Both the position numbers and the translations under genes were made by a program. 64,000 bases of DNA, taken from positions 1 to 64,000 of the forward strand of contig JAWKSZ010000043.1 of the NCBI GenBank assembly GCA_041402045.1, in the 5' to 3' direction. This document shows, piece after piece, positions 1 to 64,000 of the stretch (its first letter is position 1; every line of letters starts with the position of its first letter). The notes below the pieces were generated by a model. It ran no database searches. It was not told where the DNA came from and saw only the letters and a program-made list of their open reading frames with translations. Origin of the DNA: Planctomycetota bacterium (GTDB taxonomy: Bacteria > Planctomycetota > J058).

Positions 1-48
1 CGCCCCGCCTTGGCCTGGGCGGGGCGCCGTCTCCTACGTGACAGTGTG

Positions 49-507
49 TTATTGCGCGCGGCGGGCGACGGTCTTGCCGCGGGGGGTCACCCGGGGCTCG
101 ACGTCGATCACCATCCGCGTGAAGCGGTCACCGAAGTCCTCGGTGATCTCGACCCGGCACTCCTCGTCCTCCTTGTAGAGCACGAACTTCTGGGTCTCGA
201 GGCCGTATTTGAAGGCCACCTCCCAGCCCTGGCCGGGGAAGGCCTGCTCCACGAACTCGGCGACCTGGTCCTCGCCGAGGTACTCGTGGCGCTCGTAGAC
301 CAGGTGCAGCTTGCGGTAGGCGCTCCGGTTGTGGCGCCAGCTCGTGGTGCGGTTGAGCGTGAACTCCATGGGAGCGGGCACGTCGTCGTTGACGAGCTTG
401 CCCTTGGCCTCCGGAGTCAACGGAGGGTTGTCCTGAAAATACGCGCAGCCCGTGAACAGCGCGCCGACGAAGGTGATCCACAGGCCCCGGCGAAAGAACG
501 TCTTCAT
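49..507 (-). CDS. lipoprotein (hypothetical); signal peptide MKTFFRRGLWITFVGALFTGC with a lipobox Cys
   Basis: ORF 49..648 trimmed to the internal Met that begins a lipoprotein signal peptide. Natural amino-acid composition (K/E/F/Y-rich), unlike the overlapping R/G/P-rich frames. Confidence 0.6.
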   Translation of the reverse strand: MKTFFRRGLWITFVGALFTGCAYFQDNPPLTPEAKGKLVNDDVPAPMEFTLNRTTSWRHNRSAYRKLHLVYERHEYLGEDQVAEFVEQAFPGQGWEVAFKYGLETQKFVLYKEDEECRVEITEDFGDRFTRMVIDVEPRVTPRGKTVARRAQ

Positions 508-598
508 GCTTCCCTCCAGCCACTCCATCGGCATGGCGCGCGGGACCCTTGAGGAAGAATTTCTGGCCGCGGTAAGGTGCCCGCGAGAGGCAGGTCCC

Positions 599-1048
599 AT
601 GAGCACCGTGATCCACCGCTGGGTCGAAGCCGCCCAACGAGGCACCAACCCCCGCGTCGTGTGCCGGGCGCCCTCGGGCTGGATCGTGCTCGGCGACCCC
701 CAGGTCAGCCGAGGCTACGCCCTCCTGCTCCCGGACCCCGTCGTGCCGCACCTGAACGCCCTGGAGGGACCGGCGCGCGACCAGTTCTGGCGCGACCTGG
801 GCACCCTCGGCGACGCGCTGCTCGAGGTGACCGGCGCCGCGCGGATCAACTACGAGCTGCTCGGGAACCTCGAGCCGGCGCTCCACGGCCACGCCTTCCC
901 CCGCTACCTCGACGAGCCGGAGGCGCTGCGCACGAAGCCGATCTGGTTCCACGACTGGGACGGCGCCCCAGCCTTCGACCCGCAGGCCCACGCCCCCCTG
1001 CTGGGCGCCCTGCGCGCGGCGCTCGCGCGCCGTCTGCCGCCTGCGTGA
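599..1048 (+). CDS. HIT-like domain protein (divergent histidine-triad motif ALHGHAFPRY)
   Basis: Internal start MSTVIHRW of ORF 452..1048, with GAGAGG-like RBS upstream. H-x-H-containing HIT-like C-terminal motif. Divergent from the lipoprotein gene. Confidence 0.5.
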   Translation: MSTVIHRWVEAAQRGTNPRVVCRAPSGWIVLGDPQVSRGYALLLPDPVVPHLNALEGPARDQFWRDLGTLGDALLEVTGAARINYELLGNLEPALHGHAFPRYLDEPEALRTKPIWFHDWDGAPAFDPQAHAPLLGALRAALARRLPPA

Positions 1049-1122
1049 ACGCCGCCCTCCGCCGACCCCAGCGGGTAGCGAAGGCCGCTGCGATCGCGGA
1101 CACTCGCGGGTAGGGGGAGCCC

Positions 1123-1953
1123 ATGCCGATCCCGTTCACCTGCTCCTGCGGCTACTCCGGCGAAGAGGACGACGCGCTCCTCGGCAAGCTCAGCGCATGC
1201 CCGCGTTGCGGGGAGCTGCAACGCGTGGGCGGCGAACAACGCAAGGGCGTGCGCGCGGATCGGCCCCAGCCCCCCGCCTGGGCCGACCGCCCTGCCCCCG
1301 CCCAGGCGAAGCACGACCCCTACGCGCCCCCGGCCTCGACCAGCCCCTACGCGCCGCCCCAGGCCGAGTGGTCCCAGCCAGGCCCTGGGCGCTACGGGGA
1401 CCTGCCGCCCCGCGACCTCGAGCACGAGGCCCACGTGATCGCGATCGGCGCCTGGAACCAGATCGGCGGCGCGCTGCTCGTGGCCTTCGGGCTCCTGGGC
1501 GGGCTCATGTTCCTGGGAGGCGCAGCCGCCTCCAAGGGCCAGGGTCCGGCGTTGATCGCGGTGTTCGGCGCGTTCCTGTTCGTGTTCGTGCTGCTCGGCG
1601 GCGCCATGTTCGTCGTGGGAGCTGGGCTCCGCTCCATGAAGAACTGGGCGCGCTGGGTGACGGGCGTCCTGATCGTGCTCCAGCTCCTGTCGTCGGCGGT
1701 CAACGTGATCCAGCAGCCGTCGGCGATCCTCGGCGCTGGGATCTCGACCGCCTGGAACGTGGCGATCCTCTGGGCCCTGTTCTGCGAGCGGGCCAACGCG
1801 CTGTTCGACGCCAGCTACCAGCAGACCTTCTTGCGCTCGCCCGGTCAGCCTCGCTGGACCGCGAGCCCCTTCTTCTGGCTGCCCTTCGTCATGTGCCTCC
1901 TGGGCTGCTGCCTGGCGGCCGCGGCCGGCGGCATGGTCGGGGCCATGCGCTAG
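1123..1953 (+). CDS. membrane protein with N-terminal CxxC...CxxC zinc-ribbon and about 4 TM helices
   Basis: ORF track. N-terminus CSCG...CPRCG, Pro-rich linker, then hydrophobic helices. GGGGGAG precedes the ATG. Confidence 0.6.
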   Translation: MPIPFTCSCGYSGEEDDALLGKLSACPRCGELQRVGGEQRKGVRADRPQPPAWADRPAPAQAKHDPYAPPASTSPYAPPQAEWSQPGPGRYGDLPPRDLEHEAHVIAIGAWNQIGGALLVAFGLLGGLMFLGGAAASKGQGPALIAVFGAFLFVFVLLGGAMFVVGAGLRSMKNWARWVTGVLIVLQLLSSAVNVIQQPSAILGAGISTAWNVAILWALFCERANALFDASYQQTFLRSPGQPRWTASPFFWLPFVMCLLGCCLAAAAGGMVGAMR

Positions 1954-2079: not shown

Positions 2080-3348
2080 GTGACCGGCGCGACCTGGGAC
2101 CTGCTCAAGCAAAACGGCGACTTCCGCCGCCTGTTCGCGGCGCGCTTGACCAGCCTGTTCGGGGACTGGCTGACGCTCCTGGCGGTGGTCGCCGCGCTGC
2201 GGGACATGCAGGGCGGCGGCGGCGCCAAGGCCTTCGCCTGGGTGCTCGTGCTCAAGACGCTCCCGGTGCTCGTGGTCTCGCCCTGGGCCGGGGTGCTCGT
2301 CGATCGGGTCTCGCGCAAGGGCCTGCTCGTGGCCTCGGACCTGTTCCGCGCGGCGACGGTCGTGGGGCTCCTCGCCGCCAGCCACGGCGGCAGCCCGACC
2401 CTGCTCTACCTGCTGATCTTCGCGCAGACCGTGGGAGTGGGGATCGCCGAGCCGGCGCGCAACGCCGTGGTCCCCGACGTCGTGGCCCCGGAGCACCTCA
2501 GCGCAGCCAACGCGCTCAACGCCGCGGCCTGGTCGACCATGTTCACCCTCGGCACCCTGGTCGGCGGCCCGATCGCGGCCTACGTCGGCCCCGACGCCGC
2601 GTTCGGGATCGACGCCCTGACCTACGGGCTCTCGGCGGCGCTGATCCTGGGGGTCGCGATCCCGCCGCACCCGCCCCGCGAGCCCGAGCCGCGCAGCGTG
2701 GCCTCGCTCCTGGGGATCGCGCAAATGGTCGCGGGCTGGCGCTACCTCTGGCAGCGCCCGCGGGTCCTGACCCTGGCCCTGGCCAAGCCCGGGTGGTCCC
2801 TGGCCGGCGCCACGACGCTCCTGCTCACGCTCCTGGGCGAGGACTTCGGCCGACGCTGGGGCCGCGACGACGGCGTGCTGTGGGTGGCCCTGCTCTGGGG
2901 CGCCCGCGGCCTCGGCACCGGCGTGGGACCGATCCTGGCCCGGCACCTCGCCCGCGACGAGTCGCGGCGCATGGAGTGGCTGATCGGCCTCGCCTACTTC
3001 TGGGGCGCCACGTTCTACGTGCTCCTCGGGTTCAGCGTCGGCTTCGCGACCTCGCTGGTGTGCGTGGTCCTGGCCCACCTCGGGGGCTCGACGGTGTGGG
3101 TCCTGTCCACGATCCGGCTGCAGGAGGAGTCGCCGACCGAGGTCCGCGGGCGGGTGTTCGCCAGCGAGCAAATGACCTGGACCCTGCTCATGGCCACCGC
3201 GACCTTCGCCTTCGCCGTGTGGATCGACGACTTCGGCGGTCAGCTGCGCCCGGCCCTGAGCGCGGTCGGTTGGCTGCTCGTAGCCCCCGGGCTGCTGTGG
3301 CTGCTGCGCATGCGCAGCGGCTGGTCCGCGCCGGCCGAGACCCTCTAG
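2080..3348 (+). CDS. MFS transporter (EntS/enterobactin-exporter-like)
   Basis: 422 aa with 12 predicted TM segments, MFS signature around GVLVDRVSRKG. GTG start. Confidence 0.8.
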   Translation: MTGATWDLLKQNGDFRRLFAARLTSLFGDWLTLLAVVAALRDMQGGGGAKAFAWVLVLKTLPVLVVSPWAGVLVDRVSRKGLLVASDLFRAATVVGLLAASHGGSPTLLYLLIFAQTVGVGIAEPARNAVVPDVVAPEHLSAANALNAAAWSTMFTLGTLVGGPIAAYVGPDAAFGIDALTYGLSAALILGVAIPPHPPREPEPRSVASLLGIAQMVAGWRYLWQRPRVLTLALAKPGWSLAGATTLLLTLLGEDFGRRWGRDDGVLWVALLWGARGLGTGVGPILARHLARDESRRMEWLIGLAYFWGATFYVLLGFSVGFATSLVCVVLAHLGGSTVWVLSTIRLQEESPTEVRGRVFASEQMTWTLLMATATFAFAVWIDDFGGQLRPALSAVGWLLVAPGLLWLLRMRSGWSAPAETL

Positions 3349-4283
3349 TCCAGGGCCAGGATCTCGCCGGAGGGGTCCTCCTCCGCGGCCGCCATGAGCT
3401 CCGGGTCCTCGGCGTCGAGTTCCTCGAGCTCGAGGTCCAGGTCCAGGTTGCCCGAGCGGAAGCGGTCGAGCAGGTCCTGGGTGCGGGTGAACTCGAAGCC
3501 CTCGATCTGGTCGCGCAGCGTGAGCGGGCAGTCGGTGATCACCGACTCCAGGCCCAGGAGGAACAGGCGCTGCATGTCCCGCACCCGGTTCACGGTCCAG
3601 GGCGTAATGAAGGCGTTGGCCTGGCGCATGCTCTCCACCAGGCTCAGGGACAGGCTCTTCCAATAGCAGTCGATCCCGCGCACCCCGTCCAGGCGCACCG
3701 CGCCTCGGGCCTGGCGCTTGGTGATCGTGAGGTAGCTCAGCGGGGTCAGCGGCGAGGCGGCGTGGACCTCGGCCACCCGGCTCGGCTCGCGGCAGATCAC
3801 CACCGCCTGGTCCTGCATGCCGTGGCGCGCCAGAGCCTGGGCCACGCGCTCGCCGGCGTCGGGGGAGCGCTTGCGCTTGACCTTGATCTCGATCATGGGC
3901 ACCGCGCGGCCCTTGAGCAGGTCCAGTACCTCGTCCAGGAGCGGCACGCGCTCGCTGGCGTAGCGCGGGTCGAACCAGGCCCCGGCGGAGACGTCGGCCA
4001 GCGCGGCGGTCGGCGTGCGCGCAATGTCCCCGGTGCCGTCGGTGGTCCGGTCGAGCTTGTCGTCGTGGATCACCGCGACGTCGCCGTCCTGGGTCAGGTG
4101 CACGTCGAACTCGACCAGGTCCGCCCCGTGCTCCAGGGCCAGGGCGAAGGCGGCCAGGGTGTTCTCGGCGCGTTCTGGGAGTCGCCGCGGTGGCCGACCA
4201 CGAGCACCGGGAGCTAGCGGCGGCCGCACGCGGGCGACCACGTCCATGAGCGGGCTGCGGGGCCAGTAGACCGAAGGGGGCAC
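3345..4283 (-). CDS. glycerophosphodiester phosphodiesterase (GDPD); the N-terminal ~45 codons are in the wrong frame (frameshift near 4165)
   Basis: ENTLAAFALALEHGADLVEFDVHLTQDGDVAVIHD is the classic GDPD motif. The canonical VVGHRGDSQNAP motif lies in the adjacent frame just upstream. Confidence 0.7.
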   Translation of the reverse strand: MPPSVYWPRSPLMDVVARVRPPLAPGARGRPPRRLPERAENTLAAFALALEHGADLVEFDVHLTQDGDVAVIHDDKLDRTTDGTGDIARTPTAALADVSAGAWFDPRYASERVPLLDEVLDLLKGRAVPMIEIKVKRKRSPDAGERVAQALARHGMQDQAVVICREPSRVAEVHAASPLTPLSYLTITKRQARGAVRLDGVRGIDCYWKSLSLSLVESMRQANAFITPWTVNRVRDMQRLFLLGLESVITDCPLTLRDQIEGFEFTRTQDLLDRFRSGNLDLDLELEELDAEDPELMAAAEEDPSGEILALD

Positions 4284-4650
4284 GGGGGCAGTGTGTCAGC
4301 CCGGGGAGGTCGAAGCCAGAGGGCCTACTCGTCGCGGAGGTGGCTGGCCGAGCTGTGGGGCGGGGGCCCGTCGTCGCCGCGGTCGAGGGGCGGCGGCGGA
4401 CGTCGGCGCGCGGTGGAGCGCGACGGGCCGCGGACCTCACGCGGCCGAGCCGGCGGCCAGGGAGCTTGGCGCTGGGCGCGCGCTCTCCTGCTCCTCGTCC
4501 TCGCCCTGGTCGCCGCCCAGCCGCCGCCCGGTCTTGGGCGGCTTGAGCGCACGCGGCGCGAGCGCTCGTACTCCAGGTAGTCCTCGAGCACCTTGGCCAG
4601 GCGCTGAGTCACCTGCTGCCCGTCGCGCACGCTCTGGCTCGAGGCGCGGA

Positions 4651-7600
4651 TCAGGGGCTCGACCGCCGCGCGCAGGGCCTGGACCTGCTCGCCCACGACC
4701 CGGGCCAGGGCCAGGTCCCCCAGGTCGACGGCCTCGACGTAACCTGAGGCGGGTTCTCCGCGAGCACGCCCAGGCGCTGGGCGAGCTCGCGCAGCGGGTC
4801 GCCCTCGCCGCCTTGGGCCTTGCCCGCGGCCTGGAGCAGCGCCTCGCGCACGCCCTCGACCTGGGTCCCCAGCGCGCTGAGCTGGCTCGTGACCCGGGTC
4901 ACGGGGTCGTCGTCGCGCCCGCCGAGCAGCCGCTGCCGGCCGAACTCCTTCTTGATCGCCGCCCAGCGCGCGGCCTGCTCGGGGGTCAGCCGCCCGCGCA
5001 GCTCGGCGAGCTTGAGCAGGTTCTGCTCGGCGCCGGTGGTCAGGGTCTGGGACTCGCCGCGGTAGTGGTCGTCGACCAGCGCCTCGAGCTCGTCGGGGGT
5101 CAGGGCCGAGGCCACCTTCTCCGCGAGCTTGTTCATGTTGCGGTAGCTGCCCTGGAGCTTGAAGGGCGGCTCCTCGCGGAACGCGTCGTCCATGCTCGCC
5201 GAGCGCACGTAGAGCCCGTTGACCTTGAGCAGCACGTCCCGCACCCGGAACAGGTGCTTCAGCACCGCGGTGATCTCGTTGAGCTCGACGCCGGAGTAGG
5301 CGTGGGTGAACTCCGTGGTCGGCACCGCCTCGCCCCGGGCCAGGCGCAGCAGCCGGGTCACGTCCTCGGGGTCGCGTCCGGCCAAGGGCGCCAGGGTCGG
5401 GTTCGAGGTCAGCGCGTTCTCGACGTAGCTCAGCGCGAACACCTGGTCCTTGCCCTCGAGCACGTCGCCCAGGTTGTAGGTGTCCGCGCGGTTGGCCAGC
5501 ATGTCCGGGATCTGGAAGGTCTCGCCGCTCTCGGTGTAGGGGTTGCCGGCCATGACCACGCAGAACTTCTTGCCGCGCAGGTCGTAGGTCCGCGTGCGCC
5601 CCTTCCACACGCCCTCGATCCGCCGCTGCCCGTCGCAGAGCGAAATGAACTTCTGCAGGAACTCCGGGTGGGTGTGCTGAATGTCGTCGAGGTAGAGCAT
5701 GACGTTGTTGCCCATCTCGAACGCCAGGTTGACCTTCTCCACCTCCTGCCGCGCCGTGGCGCTGGGCGCCTCCGCCGGGTCCAGCGAGGTCACGCTGTGG
5801 CCCAGGCTCGGACCGTTGACCTTGACGAAGGTCAGCCCCAGGCGGTTCGCCACGTACTCCATGAGCGTGGTCTTGCCGTAGCCCGGCGGCGAGACCAGGA
5901 GCAGGAGCCCCATGAGGTCGGTGCGCTTGCCCTCCCCCGCGGCGCCGATCTGCTTGGCCAGGTTCTCGCCCACGAGCGGGAGGTAGACCTCGTTCACCAG
6001 CCGGTTGCGCACGAAGGAGCTCAGCACCCGCGGGGTGAACTCCTCCAGGCGCAGGCGCTCCTTCTCGCGCTCGAGCAGCTCGCGCACGAGCACGCGGTAG
6101 GCGCGGTAGGCAGGCACCCGCCGGGTCTTGAACGCGCTCAGCCGCCCGAGGAACTCGTCCAGACGCAAGGTCAGGCTGCGGTCGTGGATCCGCGGGTGCT
6201 GCCCCAGGAGTCCAGGGACCTCCGCCTCCAGCGCGGCCGCGCTCGGCTCGTAGGGCAGCGCGCCCTGGGTCAGGATCAGGACGCTGGCCTCGTCGAACAC
6301 CCGCGCTCGCGGGTCGTCGTCGCGCTTGCCGCCGAGGAAGCCCTCGAGCCAGGCGCGGATCAGCCCCACCTGGGCGCCGAGGTCGCCGTCCAGGGCCTGG
6401 AGGTCCTCCTCCAACCCCTGGCGCTCCGGCCCCAGCGCCTGGAGGAAGGCCTCGATCAACTCCAGGGCCTCGCGGCTCTGCACGAAGGCCAGGGTCTCCT
6501 GGGCCAGCTCCTCGGCCAGGTAGCGCCCGGCCTGGGCCAGCTCCGCGGGGTCGATCTCGAAGGACTCCGCGACCTCCGCCGCGAGCTCCTGGGCCAGGGC
6601 GTCCATGGCCGGGGTCGGGCCCAGCCGCGCGGTCAGGCGCCCCAGGCTGCGCGCGCGCAGCAGCCAGCCCTCCTGCTGCTCCTCGTCGCCGTGGGCCCAG
6701 AACAGACACGCGTAGGCGCGCACCCGGGGCGGGAAACGCAGCAGCCCGGCGCCGGTGTAGAGCGCGAGCAAGCGCTCGAGGATCAGCGCCGCGTCGTGGT
6801 CGTGGATCCCGCGCTCGTAGCCCTCGTCGTAGCGATCCTGGGCGTAGCCGCGGACCACCGCGAGCAGCCCGCCCTCCTCGCGCTGGGCGTCGAGCAACCC
6901 CTGCAGGCTGCGCCCGCCGACCCCGCGCTCGGCCTCGTCCAGGATCGTGTAGGCGAGGTACTCGCCGCGGTAGACCTCCGGGGTCTCGCTCACGAGCTGC
7001 TGCTGCCAGAAGGGCTTCGTGGCCTGGAAGCCCTCGTCCTGCACCGGCTCGTAGAAGTCGGTGCCGGTCAGGTGCAGGGCCATGCCCTCGCCCCGGGGCA
7101 CGAGGGTCAGCTCCAGGGGCCGCGTGTTCACGTTGAACGCGTGCCGCCCGAGCTTGATCGTGTTCTCGCCGCCGCTGAACAGGTCGAGGCGATCGCGCAG
7201 GCCGCGCTGCGCGTCCTGCTTCGCGGTCTTCAGCGCGGCGAGGACCTCGTCGGCCTTGACGCTGTCCCCGAGCTCGCCCAGCTCCGCGCTGATCTGCTGC
7301 AGCTTGAGGACCATGGGGTCGGCGGCGAAGTAGGCGTTGAGCTCGTCCAGGGAGGGGAAGTTCTTGGCCCGCCGCCCGACCCCCGCCAGGATCCGCTCCG
7401 CGGCGCCGAACAGGTTCTGGGCCCGGCGCTGGCGCGCGTCGGTCAGGGTCTGACGCTTGGCGTCGAAGGCCTCGTAGACCTCCTCGCGCTTGGCCGCGAG
7501 GTCGGCGAGGAACTCGTCGAACTCGCTGAACCGGCTCTCGAGCTCCTCGAGCTGGAGCAGGACCCGGCTCAGCTGCTCGTCGCAGGCCTCGGGGGTGTCG

Positions 7601-9747
7601 GCCAGCGCGATCGCGCTCTGCACGTTCTGCGAGAACAAGCGGAACTGCGCGGCGAACTCGGCCTGACCCTCCGCCGAGAGCAGCTGCTTGCGCCGCCCGT
7701 CGAGGGTGGCCCGCACCCGGTTCTGCTGGGCGAAGGCCTCGCTGATCCGCTCCAGGACCTCCGTGCGCTGGGTGGGATCCTCGACCTCGAGCCCGCTCAC
7801 GACCTCGGTCAGCACGGTCAGACCCTCGGCCTTGGCCTCGAGCTCGGCGCCCAGGGGCGCGAGGTCCTTGGTCTTGGTCGTGGCCTCGATCTGCTCGAGC
7901 AGCCCGTCGAAGGCCTGCTTGATCGGCTCCAGGGCTGCCGGGCGCAGGAGGAACTCGATCGCGGCGCGGCTGATCCGCTCGAACTGCGCGACGATCTCCT
8001 GCTCCAGGGCCTCGACCCGGGCCACGTCCATGTAGCGCAGGTCCTTGAGCGTGATCGCGCGCCCGCGCTGGGTGCGCAGGCTGCGCAGGGCCTCCATGAA
8101 CGGCTCGACGCTCTGCCAGTCCTCGACGGTCAGCTCGCGCTCGACCTCGCGCTGGGCCTGGAGCGCCTCGGCCAGCGCGCGCTCGGCCTGCTGCCGCAGG
8201 ACCTGGACCTTCTCGAACTCCTCGAGGATCAGCTCGGCGTTCTTGCGCACCCCCTCGATCGGCTGCTTGAGCTCGCCGACCTCGGGGTGGTCCAGCCAGT
8301 AGTAGGCGTCGAGCGCCCGCTGCGCCGCGCGGATCAGGCCCTCGTAGACCTGCCGGTTGGGCGCCTGCTCCTCGACCGCCCGGGCCAGGCTCAGGCTGTC
8401 CGAGATCCCGCGCACGAGGTCGGCGTTGCCGACCTTCGCCAGGAACGAGCCGTCGCTCGGGGCCTGGGCCGCGTGCTCGGGGGTCATGAACGGCGTCTGC
8501 CAGATCTGCATCGGGTGCGTGCGCGTGGGTTCGTCGGAGAGCACCCGAAACACGATCATGGAGCCGTCGTCGAACAGCGTGGACCCGTGGCACTGGATCG
8601 GGGTCTGGACCTCCTTGCGAATCAGGTTGTAGGGGAACAGCACGTAGCTCCCCTCCACCCGGTGGTGGAACACGTAGAGCACGTCCTCGCCGTTGGGCGA
8701 CTTCACGCTGCGCAGGAACTCGAGGTCCTGGTGCGCGCCCTCGAACAGCTTGAACTCGCCCGACTGGAGGAAGTAGCCCCCAGGGAAGATCACCCCGTGG
8801 TCCTCGGGGAGCTGCACGCAGGTCTGCCCGATCGAGTCGACCCGGGTCACCGCCTGCGTCCGCGCGCAGTAGATCAGGTAGCGCCAGGCGACCTCGCCGT
8901 AGGGCAGGATCTTGAGCAGGATCAGGCTCCCGAGCTTGGCGTAGAGGATCTGCCCGTCGTCGAGGCCCTGGTTCGCGTCGTCGACGGGCTCGTTGTAGAT
9001 CCCCTTCCCGTCCTCCGTGTTGTCCTCGACCTTGATCGTGAGGTCGCCGCCCACGGTCTCGACGAAGACCTCGTCCAGGATCGAGACGTGGGGGTGCTGG
9101 CCCTGCACGTGGTCGTCGCGGGTCGTGGCCTTCCACTCGAAGTCGTGGCTCTTGGGGCGGGTGTGGTCGCGCTCGCCGCGGTTGTCGACGTAGCTCGGGC
9201 GCCCCTCGCCGTCGAGGGCCCAGCGAAACACCCGGATCGCCGACGGCCCCTGCCCCGTGCGGAACACCGCGAGGAGCTTGCCGTCCTTGACCCGCAACTG
9301 ATCGAGCTTCGACTCCTTGTAGTACTCGTAGAGCTCGTGGAACTCGCGCTGGAAGCTCTCGGCGTCGAACAGGCCCGGGAGCGCGCTGAAGGGCACGGGC
9401 TCCAGCGACCAGGCCCCGTCCGCGCCCCGGGTCACCTGCTGCAGGCTGAACACGTCCTCGACCCGCGTCTCGCGCTTGAGGCCGATGAACACGTTGTAGC
9501 CGAACAGCAGGTAGCCCCCGACGGTGGCGATATCCCGGGGCACGCAGTTGTTCTCGGTGCGCACCCGCTCGTTGCCGGTCACGACCAGCTCGGTGCCGCC
9601 GAAGGTCTCCTTGCGCCGCTCGTTGAGGGCCTCGGCCTTCTCGCGCACCGTACGCGCCAACCCCACGAGGCGCTCACGGATCACCTCGTAGTTGCCGGTG
9701 TCGAGGCCCTCGGCCCCTGCGCTCGTCTCGGCGGCTTCCTCGCTCAC
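4651..9747 (-). CDS. giant (about 1,700 aa) multidomain protein: N-terminal beta-rich region, long helical/coiled-coil middle, C-terminal P-loop AAA+ (MoxR/AAA_5-like) ATPase; last gene of the NfeD-flotillin operon
   Basis: Walker A LLLVSPPGYGKTTL and Walker B VMLYLDDIQ. Natural composition, unlike the two overlapping R/G/P-rich ORFs (4291..9852 +, 4325..9136 -). The 3' end probably continues to about 4437 through two frame shifts. Confidence 0.8.
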   Translation of the reverse strand: MSEEAAETSAGAEGLDTGNYEVIRERLVGLARTVREKAEALNERRKETFGGTELVVTGNERVRTENNCVPRDIATVGGYLLFGYNVFIGLKRETRVEDVFSLQQVTRGADGAWSLEPVPFSALPGLFDAESFQREFHELYEYYKESKLDQLRVKDGKLLAVFRTGQGPSAIRVFRWALDGEGRPSYVDNRGERDHTRPKSHDFEWKATTRDDHVQGQHPHVSILDEVFVETVGGDLTIKVEDNTEDGKGIYNEPVDDANQGLDDGQILYAKLGSLILLKILPYGEVAWRYLIYCARTQAVTRVDSIGQTCVQLPEDHGVIFPGGYFLQSGEFKLFEGAHQDLEFLRSVKSPNGEDVLYVFHHRVEGSYVLFPYNLIRKEVQTPIQCHGSTLFDDGSMIVFRVLSDEPTRTHPMQIWQTPFMTPEHAAQAPSDGSFLAKVGNADLVRGISDSLSLARAVEEQAPNRQVYEGLIRAAQRALDAYYWLDHPEVGELKQPIEGVRKNAELILEEFEKVQVLRQQAERALAEALQAQREVERELTVEDWQSVEPFMEALRSLRTQRGRAITLKDLRYMDVARVEALEQEIVAQFERISRAAIEFLLRPAALEPIKQAFDGLLEQIEATTKTKDLAPLGAELEAKAEGLTVLTEVVSGLEVEDPTQRTEVLERISEAFAQQNRVRATLDGRRKQLLSAEGQAEFAAQFRLFSQNVQSAIALADTPEACDEQLSRVLLQLEELESRFSEFDEFLADLAAKREEVYEAFDAKRQTLTDARQRRAQNLFGAAERILAGVGRRAKNFPSLDELNAYFAADPMVLKLQQISAELGELGDSVKADEVLAALKTAKQDAQRGLRDRLDLFSGGENTIKLGRHAFNVNTRPLELTLVPRGEGMALHLTGTDFYEPVQDEGFQATKPFWQQQLVSETPEVYRGEYLAYTILDEAERGVGGRSLQGLLDAQREEGGLLAVVRGYAQDRYDEGYERGIHDHDAALILERLLALYTGAGLLRFPPRVRAYACLFWAHGDEEQQEGWLLRARSLGRLTARLGPTPAMDALAQELAAEVAESFEIDPAELAQAGRYLAEELAQETLAFVQSREALELIEAFLQALGPERQGLEEDLQALDGDLGAQVGLIRAWLEGFLGGKRDDDPRARVFDEASVLILTQGALPYEPSAAALEAEVPGLLGQHPRIHDRSLTLRLDEFLGRLSAFKTRRVPAYRAYRVLVRELLEREKERLRLEEFTPRVLSSFVRNRLVNEVYLPLVGENLAKQIGAAGEGKRTDLMGLLLLVSPPGYGKTTLMEYVANRLGLTFVKVNGPSLGHSVTSLDPAEAPSATARQEVEKVNLAFEMGNNVMLYLDDIQHTHPEFLQKFISLCDGQRRIEGVWKGRTRTYDLRGKKFCVVMAGNPYTESGETFQIPDMLANRADTYNLGDVLEGKDQVFALSYVENALTSNPTLAPLAGRDPEDVTRLLRLARGEAVPTTEFTHAYSGVELNEITAVLKHLFRVRDVLLKVNGLYVRSASMDDAFREEPPFKLQGSYRNMNKLAEKVASALTPDELEALVDDHYRGESQTLTTGAEQNLLKLAELRGRLTPEQAARWAAIKKEFGRQRLLGGRDDDPVTRVTSQLSALGTQVEGVREALLQAAGKAQGGEGDPLRELAQRLGVLAENPPQVTSRPSTWGTWPWPGSWASRSRPCARRSSP

Positions 9748-12816: not shown

Positions 12817-12856
12817 GCCCCGCTCGCGGGCCCGAGCGTAAGGGCCATCCCCGGGG

Positions 12857-18697: not shown

Positions 18698-18700
18698 TCG

Positions 18701-26117: not shown

Positions 26118-26408
26118 GAACGACCTCGAACTGCAGCATACCGCTTGCCACGGCCCGAGCGTAGTCCTGGTCTCGCGTGGTCTTACGTCCAGGCTTGGGC
26201 TACACTCGAAGCGCACGCACAGCGCGCGGAGGCGCCCCTGACCCAGCCCGAGGGTCCACCTCAGGAGCCCGCCGACGCCAGCTCGGGGCGCGGAGCGATC
26301 AGCTCCAGCGAGACGATCGAGCTGGCCGGCGCCGAGACGACGCCCCCCCGCGGGGGCGGCGACCCCAGCACCGAGACCGGATCCCTCCTGGGCGGGCTGC
26401 GCTCGGGG

Positions 26409-34190: not shown

Positions 34191-34222
34191 CCCCTCGCGA
34201 CGCGCGCCTGCTCGAGCTCCTC

Positions 34223-37840: not shown

Positions 37841-40800
37841 GTGGCAAGTCCTTACGACATAACCTTCCTCCGCTTGCTCATGGATCGCCAGTTGGCTCAA
37901 AAGCCGCAGGCGATGCAGTGCATAGCCGAGATCGACTCGCAGGCCCAGCAAGGGCGCACCGTGTCGGCCGCGCAGCTCGTCGTGCAGTTCGGGCTCGTCG
38001 ACGTCGACCTGGCGCGCGAGGTCGACGCCCTCGCGCGCCAGGAGCTCTCGCGGGCCAACGGCGCCAACGGCTCCGGCGCGCCGCCGCCGCCCCCGCCGCT
38101 CCCCGGCGGGCCGCCCCCGGCGCCCGGCGCGCTCCCGCCCACCCCCGGCGCGCTCCCGCCCATGCCCGGCGGGCTGCCCCCGACCCCCGCTGCGCTCCCG
38201 CCCACCCCGGCGGCGCTGCCCCCACGCCGACGACGCTCCCGCCCACCCCCGGCGCGCTCCCGCCGCCCCCCGCCGCGCTCCCCGGGTCCGCCGCCGTCGC
38301 TGCCTCCGGCGCCGGGCGGACTCCGCCCATGCCGGCGCTGCCGCCGACCCCGCCCCGCGCCCCTGGCGTCCGACGACGGCGGCGGCGACGACGAGGCCTA
38401 CTACGCGCTGGAGGGCTCGCTCTCGGGCTACGAGACCGGCCCCAAGCTCGGCCGCGGCCCGGTGGGGACGAGCTACGCCGGCCGCCGCGCCGACGGCTCA
38501 CCGGTGGTGGTCAAGGCGCTGAGCAAGCGCTTCGCCAAGCACCCCGACGTCGTGCGTCAGGTCGAGGACGACCTCTCGCGCTGGAAGGGCTTCGCGCACC
38601 CGACCGCGGTCAGCGTGTTCGACGTCGGCACGAGCAACGAGCGCACGGTGATCGTCTACAGCCGCGCCCGCGGCGAGAACCTGGCGGACCTGATCGAGGC
38701 CACCGGGCCCCTGGCGCCGACCCTCGCCATGCGCGTGGTCTACGACGTGGCCCTGGCGCTGGCCTCGGCCAAGGAGAAGGTCAACCTCGCCTGCGGCGAC
38801 GTGCGCGCGCAGAAGATCTACTTCGACGGGAAGCGCGCGCAGATCGCCGACCTCGGCCAGTGGCGCGCGTCGTGCCTCGGCAACGGCTTCGGCAAGCACG
38901 GGCTGACCTTCGGGCACCCGGCCTACCTGGCGCCCGAGGTCCTGCAGGAGGGGCAGGCCCAGCCCAACCCGTCGGCCGACGTCTACGCGCTGGGGATCCT
39001 GTTCTACGAGCTCCTGTGCGGGCAGCAGCCCTTCCGCGGCGAGGTCGTGGACGTGCTCAGCCAGCACATGGAGGCCCCGCTCCCGCCGCCCCCGGGGGAG
39101 GTGCGCTTCAGCGCCAAGCTCGCCGCGCTGATCCTGCGCATGACCGCCAAGAGCCCTGCCTCCCGGCTCCCCGACGCCGCGGCGGTGGTCGAGTCGATCA
39201 CCGCGCTGCTCGAGGGCAAGGGGCTCCCGCCGCAGCAGGCCAAGGCCAACGCGGTCACCGCCGACGAGTGGGAGAAGACCCAGGCCCAGAACCGCGCCAC
39301 CGGGCGCTGGAGCCGCTCGCGGATCGACGCCGCGCCGGCGATCGGCCCCTCCGAGCTCGGGCGCGCCATGGACCTCGGCGCCGCGAGCTCGGTCAGCGGC
39401 ATGCTGCCCTCGACGGTCCGGCCCAAGGAGGCCGGGGTCGAGATCTCGCTGGGCAAGAAGATCGGCCGAGGGAGCGCGGGCACCGCCTACGAGGGCACCC
39501 ACACCAAGTTCCCGGGCAAGCTCGCGATCAAGGTGCTCACCAAGCGCTTCGCCCAGCACCAGGACCTGCTGGCGGAGATCAAGGGCGGGCTGCGGCGCGT
39601 GGTCGGGGTCAAGCTCCCGGGGGTCGTGCCGGTCCTCGCGCTCGAGGAGTCCGGCGGCCGCGACCTGGTGGTCTCGCCCCTGATCCCGCATGCCCAGAGC
39701 CTGCGCCAGCGGCTCGAGACCCAGGGCGCGTTCCTGCCCTCGGTCGCCACCGGGTTCATGAAGGCCGTGGTCCAGGCGCTGGCCGCCGCGGACCGCGCCG
39801 GGCTGCACCACGGCGACCTGCGCCCGGACAAGATCCTGGTCGACGGCGAGGGCCAGGCGCACCTCGTGGACTTCGGCCTCGCGCGCGCGTCGTGCTTGGG
39901 CGCGGGCTACGGCAAGGTCGGCCTGCCCTTCGGGCACCCGGAATACCTCGCCCCCGAGGTCGTGCAGGAGTCCCGCAAGCAGCCCTCCCGCGAGTCGGAC
40001 ATGTACTCGCTGGGGATCACCTACTACGAGCTGATCTGCGGGCGCGCGCCGTATCAGAGCCCGGACCTCAAGGAGATCCTGCGCCAGCACCTCGAGGAGC
40101 CGCTGCCGCGCCCGCCGGACGAGGTCAGCCTGCCCGGCGCCGTGGCCAACCTGATCACGGCCCTGACCCACAAGAACCCCGAGGTCCGCCCCGAGACCTG
40201 GGAGGAGGTCCAGCAGGAGCTCGAGAGCTGCCTGGGCCTGGACGGCTCGGCCTTCGACCGCCCCTCGGCGCAGATCGAGGAGTTCGACCCCCTCGCCGAC
40301 GACGACGAGCCCCTGGTCGAGGTGTGGGAGCAGACCTCCGAGATCCTGGCCAAGCCCGCGATCGCCTGGGACAAGTCCAAGATCACCCAGCCCAAGCGCG
40401 TCGGCCCCGACGACCTCGCCGCGGGCACGGTCGACCTCGCCGCGAGCGAGGGCGAGAACCTCGTGGCCGCGGCGATCAAGGCCGCCGCCGCCAGCGAGAA
40501 CCCCGCGACCAGCAGCACCCGCAAGCGCGGCAAGCCCAAGGCCAAGGGCGCTGCGGCGGGCGGCGGCAAGGACGAGGGCGGCGGCAACGGCAAGCAGCTC
40601 GTGCTCGCGCTGGTCGGGCTCCTGGGCGTCGTGGGCGTGATCGCGTTCCTGGCCCTGGGCAGCGGGGACGGCGGCGGCAGCGGCAAGCCCCCCAAGCCCA
40701 ACCCCAACGGCGGCGGCACGGGCGGCGGCGGCACCGGCGGCACCGGCGGCGGGGGCACGGACAAGCCGCCCCCCGAGACCCCCGACGCCTCGAAGTGGGC

Positions 40801-41548
40801 CCAGGTCGCCAAGGACCTCGAGCGCGAGGTCGAGAGCCAGCTCCGCTCGGAGGACTACAAGGACGCCCTCGACGCGCTGAAGGAGGTCTCCTCCGAGGCG
40901 CTCAAGCAGGGCGTCGTCAGCGACGCGGTCAACCGGCTGAAGACCGAGGTCGACGGGCGCTACCGCGACGCGCTGGCCAAGGCCGAGAGCACGCTGCTCG
41001 AGCACGTGCGCCAGGGTCGCGTGCGCGACGCCCACCGCGTCGCCGGCCGCGTCGCCGGCTGGGCGGTGAACCCGGACGACGCCAAGGCGCTCAAGGAGCG
41101 GATCGACCAGGAGCTGCGCACCATGCACGGCGTGGTCGCCGAGCTCGCTCCCCGACGCGCCCCAAGGTCTCGCAGCTCGAGGAGCGCCTGCGCGAGACCC
41201 TCGCCGGCTGGAAGGAGTACGAGTCGAGCTGCCTCGCCTTCGAGGGCGGCGGCGTGGTGGTGCGTTACCCCGACGGCGGCGGCTCGGCCCCCGACGACTG
41301 GGAGGTGCTCCAGGGCGAGGCCCCCAAGCTCGACACGCTGCCCAGCGGCGGGCGCGGGCTGCGCCTGTTCGCCGCGGCGGAGCCCACGATCCTGCGCTTC
41401 AAGCTCCCGTTCAGGAAGCTGGTCGACGTGCGCCTCAAGTTCGTGCTCGGCGCCGAGGCCAAGCCGGGCTCGCGGTTCACCGTGGTGCCCCTGCTCGAGG
41501 ACCCCGGCGACAAGGGCGGCGGCCTCGACTGGGGCCTCTACGCCATGA
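37841..41548 (+). CDS. membrane-anchored tandem kinase-like protein: two degenerate Ser/Thr kinase domains, proline-rich repeat linker, TM helix, Gly-rich segment
   Basis: Domain 1 lacks HRD and DFG (CGDVRAQKIYF and DLG). Domain 2 has HHGDLRPDKILV and DFG. A frame change near 41153 lets the extracytoplasmic C-terminal domain continue to 41829. Confidence 0.75.
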   Translation: MASPYDITFLRLLMDRQLAQKPQAMQCIAEIDSQAQQGRTVSAAQLVVQFGLVDVDLAREVDALARQELSRANGANGSGAPPPPPPLPGGPPPAPGALPPTPGALPPMPGGLPPTPAALPPTPAALPPRRRRSRPPPARSRRPPPRSPGPPPSLPPAPGGLRPCRRCRRPRPAPLASDDGGGDDEAYYALEGSLSGYETGPKLGRGPVGTSYAGRRADGSPVVVKALSKRFAKHPDVVRQVEDDLSRWKGFAHPTAVSVFDVGTSNERTVIVYSRARGENLADLIEATGPLAPTLAMRVVYDVALALASAKEKVNLACGDVRAQKIYFDGKRAQIADLGQWRASCLGNGFGKHGLTFGHPAYLAPEVLQEGQAQPNPSADVYALGILFYELLCGQQPFRGEVVDVLSQHMEAPLPPPPGEVRFSAKLAALILRMTAKSPASRLPDAAAVVESITALLEGKGLPPQQAKANAVTADEWEKTQAQNRATGRWSRSRIDAAPAIGPSELGRAMDLGAASSVSGMLPSTVRPKEAGVEISLGKKIGRGSAGTAYEGTHTKFPGKLAIKVLTKRFAQHQDLLAEIKGGLRRVVGVKLPGVVPVLALEESGGRDLVVSPLIPHAQSLRQRLETQGAFLPSVATGFMKAVVQALAAADRAGLHHGDLRPDKILVDGEGQAHLVDFGLARASCLGAGYGKVGLPFGHPEYLAPEVVQESRKQPSRESDMYSLGITYYELICGRAPYQSPDLKEILRQHLEEPLPRPPDEVSLPGAVANLITALTHKNPEVRPETWEEVQQELESCLGLDGSAFDRPSAQIEEFDPLADDDEPLVEVWEQTSEILAKPAIAWDKSKITQPKRVGPDDLAAGTVDLAASEGENLVAAAIKAAAASENPATSSTRKRGKPKAKGAAAGGGKDEGGGNGKQLVLALVGLLGVVGVIAFLALGSGDGGGSGKPPKPNPNGGGTGGGGTGGTGGGGTDKPPPETPDASKWAQVAKDLEREVESQLRSEDYKDALDALKEVSSEALKQGVVSDAVNRLKTEVDGRYRDALAKAESTLLEHVRQGRVRDAHRVAGRVAGWAVNPDDAKALKERIDQELRTMHGVVAELAPRRAPRSRSSRSACARPSPAGRSTSRAASPSRAAAWWCVTPTAAARPPTTGRCSRARPPSSTRCPAAGAGCACSPRRSPRSCASSSRSGSWSTCASSSCSAPRPSRARGSPWCPCSRTPATRAAASTGASTP

Positions 41549-41829
41549 GCTTCAACGGCCGGCGCAAGACCCTCGACGCCAAGCGCACCGGGCAGCGCGA
41601 CCTGAAGCTGCTCCCGGCGTTGGAGCCGCTCGAGATCAAGCTGGTCGTCCCCGGCAACAAGGCCACGGGCGCCCTGATCCCGGCCAAGGGCCGCGCGACC
41701 AAGGGCGATGCCCAGATCGACGTCGACCCCAAGGGCGGCTACGTGACCCTGGTCCTGGTCGACACCGAGCTGTGGCTGACCGACCTGGAGCTGCGCGGGC
41801 TGTTCGACCTCGCGCGGACCGCCAAGTGA
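41150..41829 (+). CDS. C-terminal domain fragment of the tandem kinase-like protein (out of frame relative to 37841..41548)
   Basis: Natural-composition tail PKVSQLEERLRETLAGWKEYE...LFDLARTAK in frame +2. Best explained by a single-base deletion in a CCCC run near 41153. Confidence 0.5.
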
Positions 41830-41842: not shown

Positions 41843-43166
41843 ATGAGCCAGACGGTGGGTCCGATCGAGCTCCCCCGCAACTCGCGGGTGGTCCTCCTGA
41901 GCCTCGTCCCGGGGCTGGGGCACTTCTACCTCGACCGCTTCGCCATGGGCTCGCTCCTGTTCGCGGGCTTCGTGACCGCGCTCAACGCGTGGTTCCTGGG
42001 GAGCATGCTGCACTCGCTGGAGAACCCCGAGCTCCTGCGCAACGTGGCCGGGGTGACCGTGGTCCTGATCTGGGCGGCGGGCATGTATCACGCCTACCGC
42101 CTGTCCTACGGCACCGACCGCGTGGCCCTGGCCAAGGAGCGCCGCGAGCTGATCCGGCGCGCGCTGATCCACTACCTGCGCGACGAGCTGGAGGAGGCGC
42201 GCAAGCTCCTGGCCCACGCCGTGGACCTGGACGTGGACTGGGTCGACCCGGACCCGTTGTTCCACCTGGGGGTGGTCCTGGCGCGGCTCGCGGAGCGCGC
42301 GGCGCTGCGCAGCGCGAGCGAGGCCCGCGGGCTGCGGCGGCGCGCGCTGAGCGTTCAAGGCCTGCCAGAGCCGGGACCCCGACGACAAGTGGGCGCGCGA
42401 GATCGCCGTCGAGAGCCGCCGGCTCTCGCGGCGCGAGTCGCGCCGCCAGCGCGACACCTCGTCCTTGAACGTGCAGGCGTCGCTCCCCTTGGGCGGCGAG
42501 TCGACGGACATGCTGCCCGCCCTGGCCCAGCTCTCGCAGTCGGGGGAGCACCTGGTGGTGGGCAAGGCCCTGGAGCGGGCCCCGCCCGATGACCCCGGAG
42601 CCCGAGACCGAGCCCGAGCTCGAGCGAAGCCGAGGCGCCCGCCGCTCAGGAGAGCGACGCCGAGCGCTATCCGTCCGAGTCCGCGGCGTTCCGCAAGCTC
42701 CCTGTTCGGCGACGGCAAGGCGCCGCCGGTCGAGGTCGACCTGATCGACCCCGAGGACTCGCTCCCGCCGAACCGCCCGCGCTCGCGGCGCCTGACCAGC
42801 CGGCGCCTGGCCAAGGCGCGGCTGCTGGAGCGGCTGGAGAGCGAGACCGAGCTGGAGGCCGTCGACGACGCCCCCGGGAGCGTGCCCCCGCGCCTGAGCG
42901 AGGAGGCCGCGCGCGCGCCGACGGCGTCCTACGGCGTGGCCGCTCCGGACGAGGCCGAGACCGAGGCCTGGAGGGCGAGCGACGAGCTCGACGCGAGCGG
43001 GGACGCCGAGGTCGACCCCTCCGCCGACGCCGAGGAGATCCTGGAGCCCGACGCCCTGGACGAGCTCGACGCGCCCCCGGCGGCGCCAGACGACGACCCC
43101 GAGGACGCGACCTCCGCGACCTCCCCCCCCAACCGGCCGAGCGGCCGGAGAGAGGACGAACCGTGA
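41843..43166 (+). CDS. membrane/TPR-like protein with acidic C-terminal region; frame-disrupted at about 4 positions (about 42350, 42596, 42630, 42697)
   Basis: ORFs 41843..42592 and 42465..43166 plus two short out-of-frame segments all have high third-position GC only in alternating frames. The terminal frame is translationally coupled to purF. Confidence 0.55.
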
Positions 43167-45560: not shown

Positions 45561-45573
45561 GCTAGCGGCTCAG

Positions 45574-52366: not shown

Positions 52367-52539
52367 GGGGGACCTCCGTTCCACCCCCAAGAGCGCACGC
52401 CGCATGCCGGGGGCGCTGCGGGCAGAACTCGGGCGCGAGCGGGCGACGCCGCGTCGCGTCGCGACAGCGCTGTCGGCGCCGTGGACAGCTCTGACCCCCA
52501 GCCGTGGGGGCGCGCCGCGCGATCGCGTAGGCTGAGCGG

Positions 52540-60080: not shown

Positions 60081-60120
60081 GCTGGCGAGTGTAGCGCGTA
60101 GGCGGGGGCTTGTCGGCCTC

Positions 60121-61957: not shown

Positions 61958-62074
61958 CAAGCGAAGCCTCTACTAGAAACCAGAGTCACGATCCTGAGCG
62001 GGCGAGCGAGCGCCAGATCGCTGACGACATGGGAGCCACTCTCGCCCGCTCAGAATCGTGAACTCTGGTTTAGC
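61958..62074. repeat. structured hairpin repeat, copy 2 (arms ccagagtcacgatcctgagcgggcgag / ctcgcccgctcagaatcgtgaactctgg)
   Basis: Same element as 55308..55425. Base changes between copies preserve pairing (ccgg/ccgg versus ccag/ctgg). Sits between convergent gene ends. Confidence 0.6.
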
Positions 62075-62079
62075 AGCTG

Positions 62080-62613
62080 TTAGACGAGCGCCGAGAGCGT
62101 GGTCAAGGACTCGAAGCGGTAGCCCGCCTCCTCGATCCGCTCGCGGCCGCCGGCCTCGCGATCGACCATGCACCACACCCCGAGCACCGTCGCCTGCTCG
62201 GCGACGCGCTCGGCGGCCTTGAGCACCGAGCCGCCGGAGGTGACCACGTCCTCGACCAGGACCACGCGGTCGTCGGCGCCGAGGCTCGCGCCCTCGATCG
62301 CCTTGCCCAGCCCGTGCCCCTTGGGGGTCGGGCGCACGTAGACGAGCTTGAGGGGCACGCCGTCCTGGGCGGCGAGCACCCCGGTGGCGGACACCAGCGG
62401 GCAGGCGCCGGTGACCGGCCCCGCGAGGCAGGTCGCGCCCCAGCGCTGGGCCATGGCCAGGATCTCGCGCCCGAGGAGCAAGGACCCCAGCGGGTCCAGG
62501 CTCACCTTGCGCCCGTCGACGTAGACGGTGCTGGTGCCGCCGGAGGCGAGCTGGATCGGGGGGCCGTGCGCCACGCTCCGGCGCAAGTGCTGAAGGAGTT
62601 CGCTGTCGCTCAT
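62080..62613 (-). CDS. pyrE: orotate phosphoribosyltransferase
   Basis: PRTase motif VVLVEDVVTSGGS. 177 aa, the short OPRTase type. Confidence 0.85.
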   Translation of the reverse strand: MSDSELLQHLRRSVAHGPPIQLASGGTSTVYVDGRKVSLDPLGSLLLGREILAMAQRWGATCLAGPVTGACPLVSATGVLAAQDGVPLKLVYVRPTPKGHGLGKAIEGASLGADDRVVLVEDVVTSGGSVLKAAERVAEQATVLGVWCMVDREAGGRERIEEAGYRFESLTTLSALV

Positions 62614-62671
62614 GGCGCGATCTTACGCGCTGGCGGGCGAGGGGTAGAATTCCCCCGAAGGGGAGGTCCGG

Positions 62672-64000
62672 GTGGCCGCGCTCCAGACACGGGACAGCGA
62701 GCTCGTCGAGCTCGGCGGGGTGTGGGTCGCGCGCAGCGTCCCCGGGCTCTACCAGCGCTGGGTGCGCGAGCACGCCCACGAGCCGGTGGTCTACCGCCGC
62801 GCCGCCGGCGCCTGGCACGGGATCACCGCGCTGGCCCAGGCGGAGCAGGTCGAGCGCCTCGCTCGGGGCCTGATCGCCCTCGAGGTGGCCCCCGGCGACC
62901 GGGTGGGGATCCTGGCCGAGACGTCGGCCGAGTGGGCGGTGGCGGACCAGGCAATCCTGCACGTGGGCGGGGTGACGGTCGGGGTCTACCCCACGCTCCT
63001 CGGGCCGCAGGTGGCCTACCAGCTCGACCACGCCCAGGTGCGCGTGCTGTTCGTCTCCGACGTGGCGCAGCTGACCAAGGTCCGCGCGATCCGCGAGCAG
63101 GTCCCGAGCCTGGAGCGGATCGTGCTCTTCACCCCGGGGGTCGGGCAGCAGAGCGCGCCGAGCGACGCCCTGGACCTCGCCGCCCTCGAGGCGCTGGGCG
63201 CCAGCGTGTCCCCCGACGAGGTCGAGGCGCGCTGGCGCGCCCTGGGCCCCGACGACCTCGCGACCCTGATCTACACCTCGGGCACCACCGGGCAGCCCAA
63301 GGGCGCGGAGCTGACCCACGGCAACCTGACCTTCACCGCGGTGGCGGCGGCGACCGCGCACCCGCCCGGCGTCGACGAGCGCACCGTGGTGTTCCTGCCC
63401 CTGGCCCACGTGCTCCAGCGCTGGATCTGCTACGCCGCGCTGACCCGCGGCGCGGTGCAGTACTTCGCGGCCTCGCACCACACGATCATGGACGACCTGC
63501 GCACCGCCGAGCCGAACTTCCAGGTCTCGGTCCCGCGGATCTGGGAGAAGGTCCACGCGCGGATCCTCGAGCGCCTGGGCCAGGCGCCCAAGCACCGCCA
63601 GCGGCTGTTCGCCTGGGCGCTGGGGGTCGGGCGGCGCGCGATCCCCTACCGCGAGCGCCAGGCCACGCTCCCGCTGCGCCTGCGGCTCGAGGCCGCGGTC
63701 GCCTCGCGGGTGGTGTGGAGCCCGCTCAAGGCGCGGCTGTTCGGCACGCGCCTGCAGTACCTCAGCTCGGGGGGCGCGCCGATCGGGCGCGCGCTGCTCG
63801 AGTTCTTCCTGTCCCTCGACGTGTTGATCCTCGAGGGCTGGGGCCTGACCGAGACCTCGGCCCCGGCCACGATCAACCGCCCGCTGGCCTTCCGCCTGGG
63901 CAGCGTGGGCCAGCCCTTGCCCGGGGTCGAGATCAAGGTCGCCCCCGACGGCGAGCTCTGCGTGCGCGGCCCCGGCGTGTTCCGCGGCTACCACCTCGAC
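62672..64000 (+). CDS. AMP-dependent synthetase/ligase (long-chain fatty-acid-CoA ligase-like), 3' partial at the window end
   Basis: Not in the ORF track because there is no stop before the window end. GTG start with GGGGAGG RBS. AMP-binding motif IYTSGTTGQPKG. Confidence 0.8.
   Translation, partial: MAALQTRDSELVELGGVWVARSVPGLYQRWVREHAHEPVVYRRAAGAWHGITALAQAEQVERLARGLIALEVAPGDRVGILAETSAEWAVADQAILHVGGVTVGVYPTLLGPQVAYQLDHAQVRVLFVSDVAQLTKVRAIREQVPSLERIVLFTPGVGQQSAPSDALDLAALEALGASVSPDEVEARWRALGPDDLATLIYTSGTTGQPKGAELTHGNLTFTAVAAATAHPPGVDERTVVFLPLAHVLQRWICYAALTRGAVQYFAASHHTIMDDLRTAEPNFQVSVPRIWEKVHARILERLGQAPKHRQRLFAWALGVGRRAIPYRERQATLPLRLRLEAAVASRVVWSPLKARLFGTRLQYLSSGGAPIGRALLEFFLSLDVLILEGWGLTETSAPATINRPLAFRLGSVGQPLPGVEIKVAPDGELCVRGPGVFRGYHLD

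Follow-up and report, generated by a model that had tools for sequence, protein, structure and literature searches.

Clustered single-base frame breaks in five genes of a 64-kb Planctomycetota contig, probably errors of the assembly consensus

Genuine pseudogenes accumulate in decaying bacterial genomes, for instance in Mycobacterium leprae and in recent symbionts. Programmed frameshifts such as those of prfB (+1) and dnaX (-1) occupy sites that are conserved across relatives and display defined slippery motifs. Long-read (meta)genome assemblies have been documented to suffer from frameshifts induced by insertions and deletions (indels), as outlined in PMC9262707 and bioRxiv 10.1101/2021.08.23.457338. 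The stretch considered here, called the window, comprises the first 64,000 nucleotides of contig JAWKSZ010000043.1 (Planctomycetota bacterium, assembly GCA_041402045.1). Reading frames were found to be interrupted in five of its genes, namely those encoding a glycerophosphodiester phosphodiesterase (GDPD), a giant ATPase, an ABC_ATPase-family protein and a tandem Ser/Thr kinase, and a gene preceding purF (pre-purF). These breaks are probably errors of the assembly consensus and not mutations carried by the cell, a reading to which a probability of roughly 0.8 was assigned.

With a G+C content of 72 %, the window displays long open frames by chance in all six frames. About 47 genes were mapped by means of the periodicity of G+C at third codon positions (GC3), a codon-usage Viterbi frame tracker and Pfam. 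Breaks were assessed by three approaches treated as independent. The seven-state Viterbi tracker, trained on the codon usage of the window itself, reported same-strand frame switches lacking a stop codon; Pfam profiles indicated whether one domain was split over two frames and restored by a one-base edit; and a frameshift-aware protein-to-DNA aligner was run with query proteins taken from independent assemblies of relatives. These relatives were L001, a contig of a metagenome-assembled genome (MAG) from the GTDB genome set that is syntenic with window positions 31.4-38.1 kb; L003, an ENA contig assembled with MEGAHIT; L005, from JGI and conspecific with L003; and L004, a JGI contig displaying 94.8 % nucleotide identity to the GDPD region of the window. 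When the kinase was used as query against genome contigs, only L001 and an unrelated Paenibacillus locus were returned; L005 was recovered by a metagenome pattern scan.

Frame breaks in five genes

Nine breaks were confirmed, a number that falls to eight if two neighbouring jumps in pre-purF are one event. The total amounted to 9-13 single-base events in five of the ~47 genes (Table 1). A base was lacking at 4166, ~4742, ~4550 and ~41160, and an extra base was present at 4216 and at the pre-purF sites. The occurrence of both insertions and deletions had already been pointed out in a preliminary description of the window, which came close to the actual number of events and had however placed the number of affected genes at a dozen or more.

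Table 1. Coordinates of the affected genes, of their frame breaks and of genes considered for comparison (window positions).
Feature	Position	Strand	Remark
GDPD	3345..4247	-	300 aa once repaired
GDPD indel 1, extra T	4216	-	GCTAGC in window, GCAGC in L004
GDPD indel 2, missing G	4166..4167	-	GCC-GAG in window, GCCGGAG in L004
Giant ATPase (DUF3686 + DUF7902 + AAA)	4437..9747	-	Pfam, three-frame reading, Viterbi segmentation
ATPase tail break 1, 1 nt short	4698..4773	-	7/7 true homologues; Viterbi switch 4741/4742
ATPase tail break 2 (probable), 1 nt short	4546..4582	-	4/7 homologues; Viterbi switch 4545/4546
PRXL2/AhpC-TSA_2-like thioredoxin-fold gene	16420-16989	-	In-frame TGA at 16852-16854
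Kinase "at 26409", no break detected	26260..27833	+	Pkinase profile 1-256 of 263, one frame
ABC_ATPase-family gene (ABC_N + ABC_ATPase + MRB1590_C)	27836..29564	+	
ABC_ATPase break(s)	28577..28610	+	At ...GGCGGCTGCGCGGGCTGGGGGTCCCCGCGG
Small stand-alone gene, not frameshifted	33879..34190	+	103 aa
TPR gene, intact	34187..37717	+	No frameshift called with L001 and L003 proteins
Tandem Ser/Thr kinase	37841..41829	+	~1327 aa repaired; two Pkinase stretches (Pfam)
Possible compensating pair, Pro-rich linker	38200..38365 (~38215, ~38352)	+	
Kinase tail break, 1 nt short	41144..41170 (~41160)	+	Viterbi switch 41144/41145
Pre-purF gene (membrane/TPR-like protein, acidic tail)	41843..43166	+	~437 aa repaired
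Pre-purF break 1, net +1	42345..42355	+	Lone A in place of relative's whole codon; not homopolymer
Pre-purF breaks 2 and 3, +1 each	42580..42660	+	Short intermediate-frame segment, found by aligner and Viterbi independently
Pre-purF break 4, extra C	42699..42706	+	CTCCCTG where CTCCTG implied

The Viterbi tracker uncovered eight genuine stop-less switches in the window; run on 20 kb of coding sequence of L001 and L003, both assembled from short reads, it reported none. Two further switches, at 15532 and 18698, corresponded to ordinary gene boundaries and were discarded. Likewise, the aligner called no frameshift in purF, the TPR gene, the radical-SAM gene, AhpC, the small ORF (open reading frame) of Table 1 or the ATPase body. 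GC3 remained at 0.93-1.00 past the breaks, and the repaired frames were devoid of stops. In the independent assemblies of relatives the affected genes occupied a single frame, as observed for GDPD in L004, for the kinase and pre-purF in L003 and L005, and for the ATPase tail in its homologues; the ABC_ATPase break was judged against a Pfam profile.

GDPD provided the closest comparison. As assembled, its PF03009 match reached 115.8 bits (profile 9-242) and the catalytic HRG motif was encountered in a different frame from this match; once repaired, the match rose to 129.3 bits and covered profile 1-242. DNA alignment of the region with L004 (1167 nt, 94.8 % identical) displayed 61 substitutions and exactly two internal indels, so that comparison with a close relative, recommended in the preliminary description, isolated precisely the indels of Table 1. 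Where a single disruption had been proposed, two were thus found (4216 and 4166); they are 50 nt apart, compensate each other and scramble the catalytic HRG segment. Reversion of both yielded a protein of 300 aa, 98.3 % identical to JGI protein P0161. Repaired GDPD and its L004 counterpart differed by 41 synonymous and five non-synonymous codons; the two codon differences located between the indels were both synonymous in the repaired frame.

The giant ATPase probably ends at the stop codon 4437-4439. Two breaks had been announced at its 3' end; the first was confirmed, and the second is only probable because the tail is poorly conserved. The same seven homologues called no frame jump in the body of the gene. 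As a separate observation, the best matches to the ATPase tail were Myxococcota MAGs (Polyangiales at 77 %, also Kofleriaceae and Nannocystis) despite the Planctomycetota label of the contig; a check of that label, or of how this gene came to be there, may be worthwhile.

The ABC_ATPase-family gene was broken as previously described. Its PF09818 domain was split at ~28600, profile positions 3-79 and 77-272 being read in successive frames (68 + 304 bits as assembled). Removal of one G from a run of five restored a single match over profile 3-272 at 383.5 bits, and insertion of two bases restored the same match at 396.6 bits. At least one event is present and a second is probable, the choice between one and two turning solely on this difference of 13 bits in Pfam score. 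A codon-aware pattern adjoining the break gave no match in the metagenome scan. The kinase located just upstream, at 26409, had been considered as possibly broken; it displayed a complete Pkinase domain in a single frame with GC3 of 0.93-1.0 and formed one Viterbi segment. Downstream, the 1.1-kb stretch 29557-30665 was devoid of codon periodicity in any frame and of a counterpart in L001. The one ORF of notable size in it (29791..30525, minus strand, 244 aa) gave no Pfam match and displayed a GC3 of 0.70-0.78. The possibility that this stretch represents a heavily frameshifted gene was rejected, as it contains this 244-aa ORF with atypical codon usage and gives no frame-switch signal.

The tandem Ser/Thr kinase is encoded by L003 and L005 in one ORF of 1341 aa. 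Once aligned to the window, residues 1-1111 of this relative's protein fell in one frame and residues 1111-1341 in another, and the alignment score was 4675 with the frameshift allowed and 3928 without it. The frame of the tail would be restored by lengthening a run of four C to five. Of the three breaks initially proposed in this gene, the one at ~41160 was therefore confirmed. The other two would form a compensating pair in the Pro-rich linker, where the LPPTPGALPP motif runs on in the alternative frame and this frame is 25 nats better in codon log-odds. The linker is of low complexity, which made homologue alignments uninformative, and L005, being from the same species as L003, was of no help either; the existence of the pair is possible.

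Pre-purF was the most heavily affected gene. P0001 (451 aa) spanned 92 % of its repaired form, and alignment of the relatives' 451-aa or 495-aa protein called four +1 jumps, at ~42350, 42591, 42655 and 42701, with scores of 1189 and 1040 when frameshifts were allowed as against 689 and 526 when they were not. The same four switches were found independently by the Viterbi tracker, in agreement with the four breaks first described, although the second and third could formally be one -1 event instead. The fully conserved blocks RYPSESAAFRKL and LIDPE.SLPPNRPRSRRLTSRRLAKARLLERLESE fell in different frames, and removal of one C at the fourth break gave KLLFGDGK, to be compared with KLLFGDGN in the relative. 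The conserved block past all four jumps displayed 85 % amino-acid identity, a GC3 of 1.00 and a codon-position ratio, (pos1 + pos2)/(2 × pos3), of 0.19, versus 0.33 for the intact purF. Between L003 (6238-7593) and L005 (3996-5543), two independent assemblies of one species, the pre-purF protein differed in the length of its acidic (DA/EA) repeat tail, giving 451 versus 495 aa; this is either genuine variation in repeat length or a collapse of repeats during assembly.

Gene boundaries and programmed shifts

A frameshift had also been reported in a so-called phasin/TPR gene. As judged from sequence comparison, this junction is a normal boundary between two genes, the small ORF and the TPR gene, which overlap by the four nucleotides CTGA. 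L001 could be followed through the junction with the same stop codon, the same frame change and no indel relative to the window, and an exhaustive search of a library of 1.8 billion proteins gave 17 homologues of the small ORF, all of them stand-alone (97-141 aa) and aligned end to end. A -1 frameshift at CCCC-TGA that would fuse the small ORF to the TPR gene was rejected for this latter reason.

Within window positions 34181-34190 the TGA stop of the small ORF overlaps a CTG from which the TPR frame runs on, and neither ATG, GTG nor TTG was encountered in the TPR frame at the junction. L001 displayed an identical CTGA arrangement at 6478-6487, with three nucleotide differences just downstream that were all synonymous in the TPR frame. 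This arrangement suggests that translation of the TPR gene would be re-initiated at the CTG by translational coupling, or would begin at some other start codon.

The junction is an instance of what could be suspected of all sites, namely that the breaks are ordinary gene boundaries misread in a 72 % G+C sequence with six open frames. Such an explanation holds for this 4-nt overlap as well as for the discarded Viterbi switches at 15532 and 18698. Elsewhere, the junctions are bridged by one Pfam domain or by one homologous protein, no start or stop codon is found at the switches, and the controls produced no false calls. Misreading of boundaries is thus refuted for the nine confirmed sites and valid only for the phasin/TPR junction; as an account of the whole it was considered very improbable.

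Even less credit was given to programmed ribosomal frameshifting or transcriptional slippage, by which full-length proteins would be obtained from the sequence as it stands. Shifts of +1 or -1 do rebuild full-length frames, short runs of C or G are present at some of the sites, and a relative shares the CCCC-TGA junction between the small ORF and the TPR gene. This last point is nevertheless explained by two separate genes, and the other sites are not conserved, the kinase, pre-purF, GDPD and the ATPase tail being single-frame in relatives. No slippery motif recurred across the sites. No precedent is known to us in programmed frameshifting for four shifts in one gene or for a compensating pair such as that of GDPD.

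Distribution and origin of the breaks

The breaks were restricted to three patches, at 4.17-4.75 kb, 28.6 kb and 38.2-42.7 kb, and no event was detected in the remaining ~45 kb of coding sequence. Seven of the nine events had a neighbour within less than 700 nt (P~0.001 in 100,000 simulations); the densest groups were the compensating +1/-1 pair separated by 50 nt and the three or four events gathered in 350 nt. The disruptions are real, yet being clustered they do not merit the term pervasive first applied to them.

The location of each break at a short G or C run had been regarded as diagnostic. Such runs were present at some sites (28596-28605, ~41160, ~42705); as a G/C run of at least three occurs no more than 10 nt away from 69 % of window positions, this location is uninformative. 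Local G+C at the events was 0.755 versus 0.724, a mild rise that decides nothing on GC-driven dropout of short reads.

Real and recent mutations in the sampled population, leaving five young pseudogenes or altered alleles, constitute the most serious alternative, although a rather unlikely one. The breaks are lineage-specific and relatives are free of them, as such mutations would predict. Several further points weigh against errors of the consensus in the same way. These errors were deduced from comparison with relatives and not from reads; the closest comparator is a relative with 95 % identity and not the same strain, so that strain-specific real mutations are possible. Essentiality can be demonstrated for none of the five genes, nor is it obvious for any. 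Enrichment at homopolymer runs of at least four was not seen, three of the nine events lying within ±15 nt of such a run for a background of 0.29, and neither of the two indels resolved to the base (GCTAGC and the shortening of GG to G) is located in a long homopolymer. Finally, the kinase tail past its break displayed 59 % amino-acid identity and a codon-position ratio of 0.91, which amounts to a somewhat higher non-synonymous share; its weak conservation could be that of a fast-evolving domain or could reflect slightly relaxed selection.

Against real mutations stands the number and nature of the events that they would require. About ten independent and very recent indels per 64 kb would have arisen together with not a single nonsense mutation; among the ~47 genes no premature stop was detected besides the selenocysteine-type TGA discussed below. 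Three or four events would have struck 350 nt of one gene with no substitutional decay (the pre-purF ratio being 0.19 and its GC3 1.00), and GDPD, whose differences are 41 synonymous to five non-synonymous, would have received both members of a +1/-1 pair separated by 50 nt. With the remaining ~42 genes undamaged and a high coding density, the window does not resemble a decaying genome; the observed clustering is not expected of independent mutations either. Consensus error is favoured because real mutations would need to be many, extremely recent, limited to indels and clustered.

Under consensus error, the five genes would most likely be intact in the living organism, and 9-13 positions in the three patches would carry one base too many or too few in the consensus. 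A noisy long-read or strain-mixed assembly, incompletely polished, would be a likely cause; patchy errors due to low local coverage, strain mixture or incomplete polishing would fit better than homopolymer errors. The preliminary description had likewise opted for technical indels over pseudogenes, and this part stands, as relatives are intact and purifying selection persists. Its narrower wording, homopolymer errors of an uncorrected long-read assembly, exceeds the evidence because no homopolymer signature was found (three of nine events near a run of at least four).

Should the indels be real nonetheless, five genes of a natural population would have acquired recent, clustered single-base indels, which was judged unlikely. 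The GDPD pair would then swap exactly the catalytic HRG segment of a strongly conserved protein. Localised error-prone repair or mutagenesis could be envisaged, or selection for full-length variants that are catalytically dead; multiple frameshifts clustered in genes that are still under purifying selection would in any case be unusual.

Annotation, neighbouring genes and comparison with described systems

The breaks matter for the quality of annotation and not for biology. As foreseen in the preliminary description, automated annotation was affected: the NCBI pipeline (PGAP, Prokaryotic Genome Annotation Pipeline) recorded garbled or split products. Window ORF 41843-42589 is identical to MEZ6187383.1 (R3F62_20525, hypothetical protein, 249 aa), which is recorded from a 67,563-bp MAG contig together with several other proteins of the window and represents the first 249 codons of pre-purF, out-of-frame tail included; an unassigned accession between MEZ6187383.1 and purF probably holds the 3' fragment. 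A garbled GDPD of 312 aa lacking the catalytic motif was recorded as a normal protein, MEZ6187359.1. For the giant ATPase, no record with 100 % identity was found among the matches of the homologue search, which suggests that PGAP flagged this gene as a pseudogene. Garbled or split records of this kind contaminate protein databases and distort the counting of pseudogenes, the estimation of completeness and statistics on domains. In scans of GC-rich DNA, frame tracking combined with homologue controls separates true breaks from overlapping gene boundaries; at 72 % G+C, the location of a break at a G or C run constitutes no evidence by itself.

The in-frame TGA of the PRXL2/AhpC-TSA_2-like gene had been regarded as genuine and of a different kind, and this view is supported. 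FLRHFG-U-LFCR aligned with FGCVVCR of PDB 9us9 (prostamide/PGF synthase), the TGA falling on the first Cys of the catalytic CxxC, and replacement of U by C raised the Redoxin score from 17.8 to 30.2 bits. A candidate SECIS hairpin was predicted downstream of the TGA, with an energy no better than that of shuffled sequence (z = 0.03). No tRNA gene and no Rfam family was matched within the 64-kb window; tRNA-Sec was therefore absent from it, as was any other tRNA. The TGA is probably a selenocysteine codon, unrelated to the indels.

Positions 45556-49059 displayed a lower G+C (~0.65) and atypical codon usage, and encode a pirin, NmrA-like and SnoaL-like proteins and a LysR regulator. In L005, different genes were encountered between purF and an RNA-repair gene (window 52531 onward); because of this difference after purF, acquisition of the ~44.6-52.5 kb stretch by gene transfer is proposed as something that may have occurred. 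The plus-strand gene 52531-55239, retained in L005 at 80 % nucleotide identity, encodes 903 aa with MJ1316 (RNA cyclic-phosphate end recognition) and Exo_endo_phos nuclease/phosphatase domains, a 2',5' RNA ligase-superfamily domain and a fragment of a poly(A)-polymerase central domain; its product resembles an enzyme of RNA repair or end healing. Ser/Thr kinase genes numbered five in the 64 kb, including two paralogues in which a Ser/Thr kinase is fused to an FGE-sulfatase (formylglycine-generating-enzyme-like) domain, at 12842-15040 (+) and 56637-60242 (-), and three others.

Among described systems, decaying bacterial genomes share with the window frameshifted ORFs whose orthologues are intact in relatives. 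They differ by nonsense mutations, downstream substitutional decay and loss of coding density, all of which are absent here, where ~42 of 47 genes are intact. With prfB and dnaX the window shares a full-length protein that depends on a frame change of +1 or -1, whereas the sites of the window are absent from relatives. Indel errors of long reads (nanopore or PacBio CLR, continuous long reads), as they are outlined in the two reports cited for them (PMC9262707; 10.1101/2021.08.23.457338), are classically tied to homopolymers and distributed genome-wide, in contrast to the three patches observed here with no enrichment at runs of at least four. The likeness to them is found elsewhere: conserved genes are split or garbled by single-base indels and regain full-length matches to homologues upon one-base edits, and the annotation is left truncated or split.

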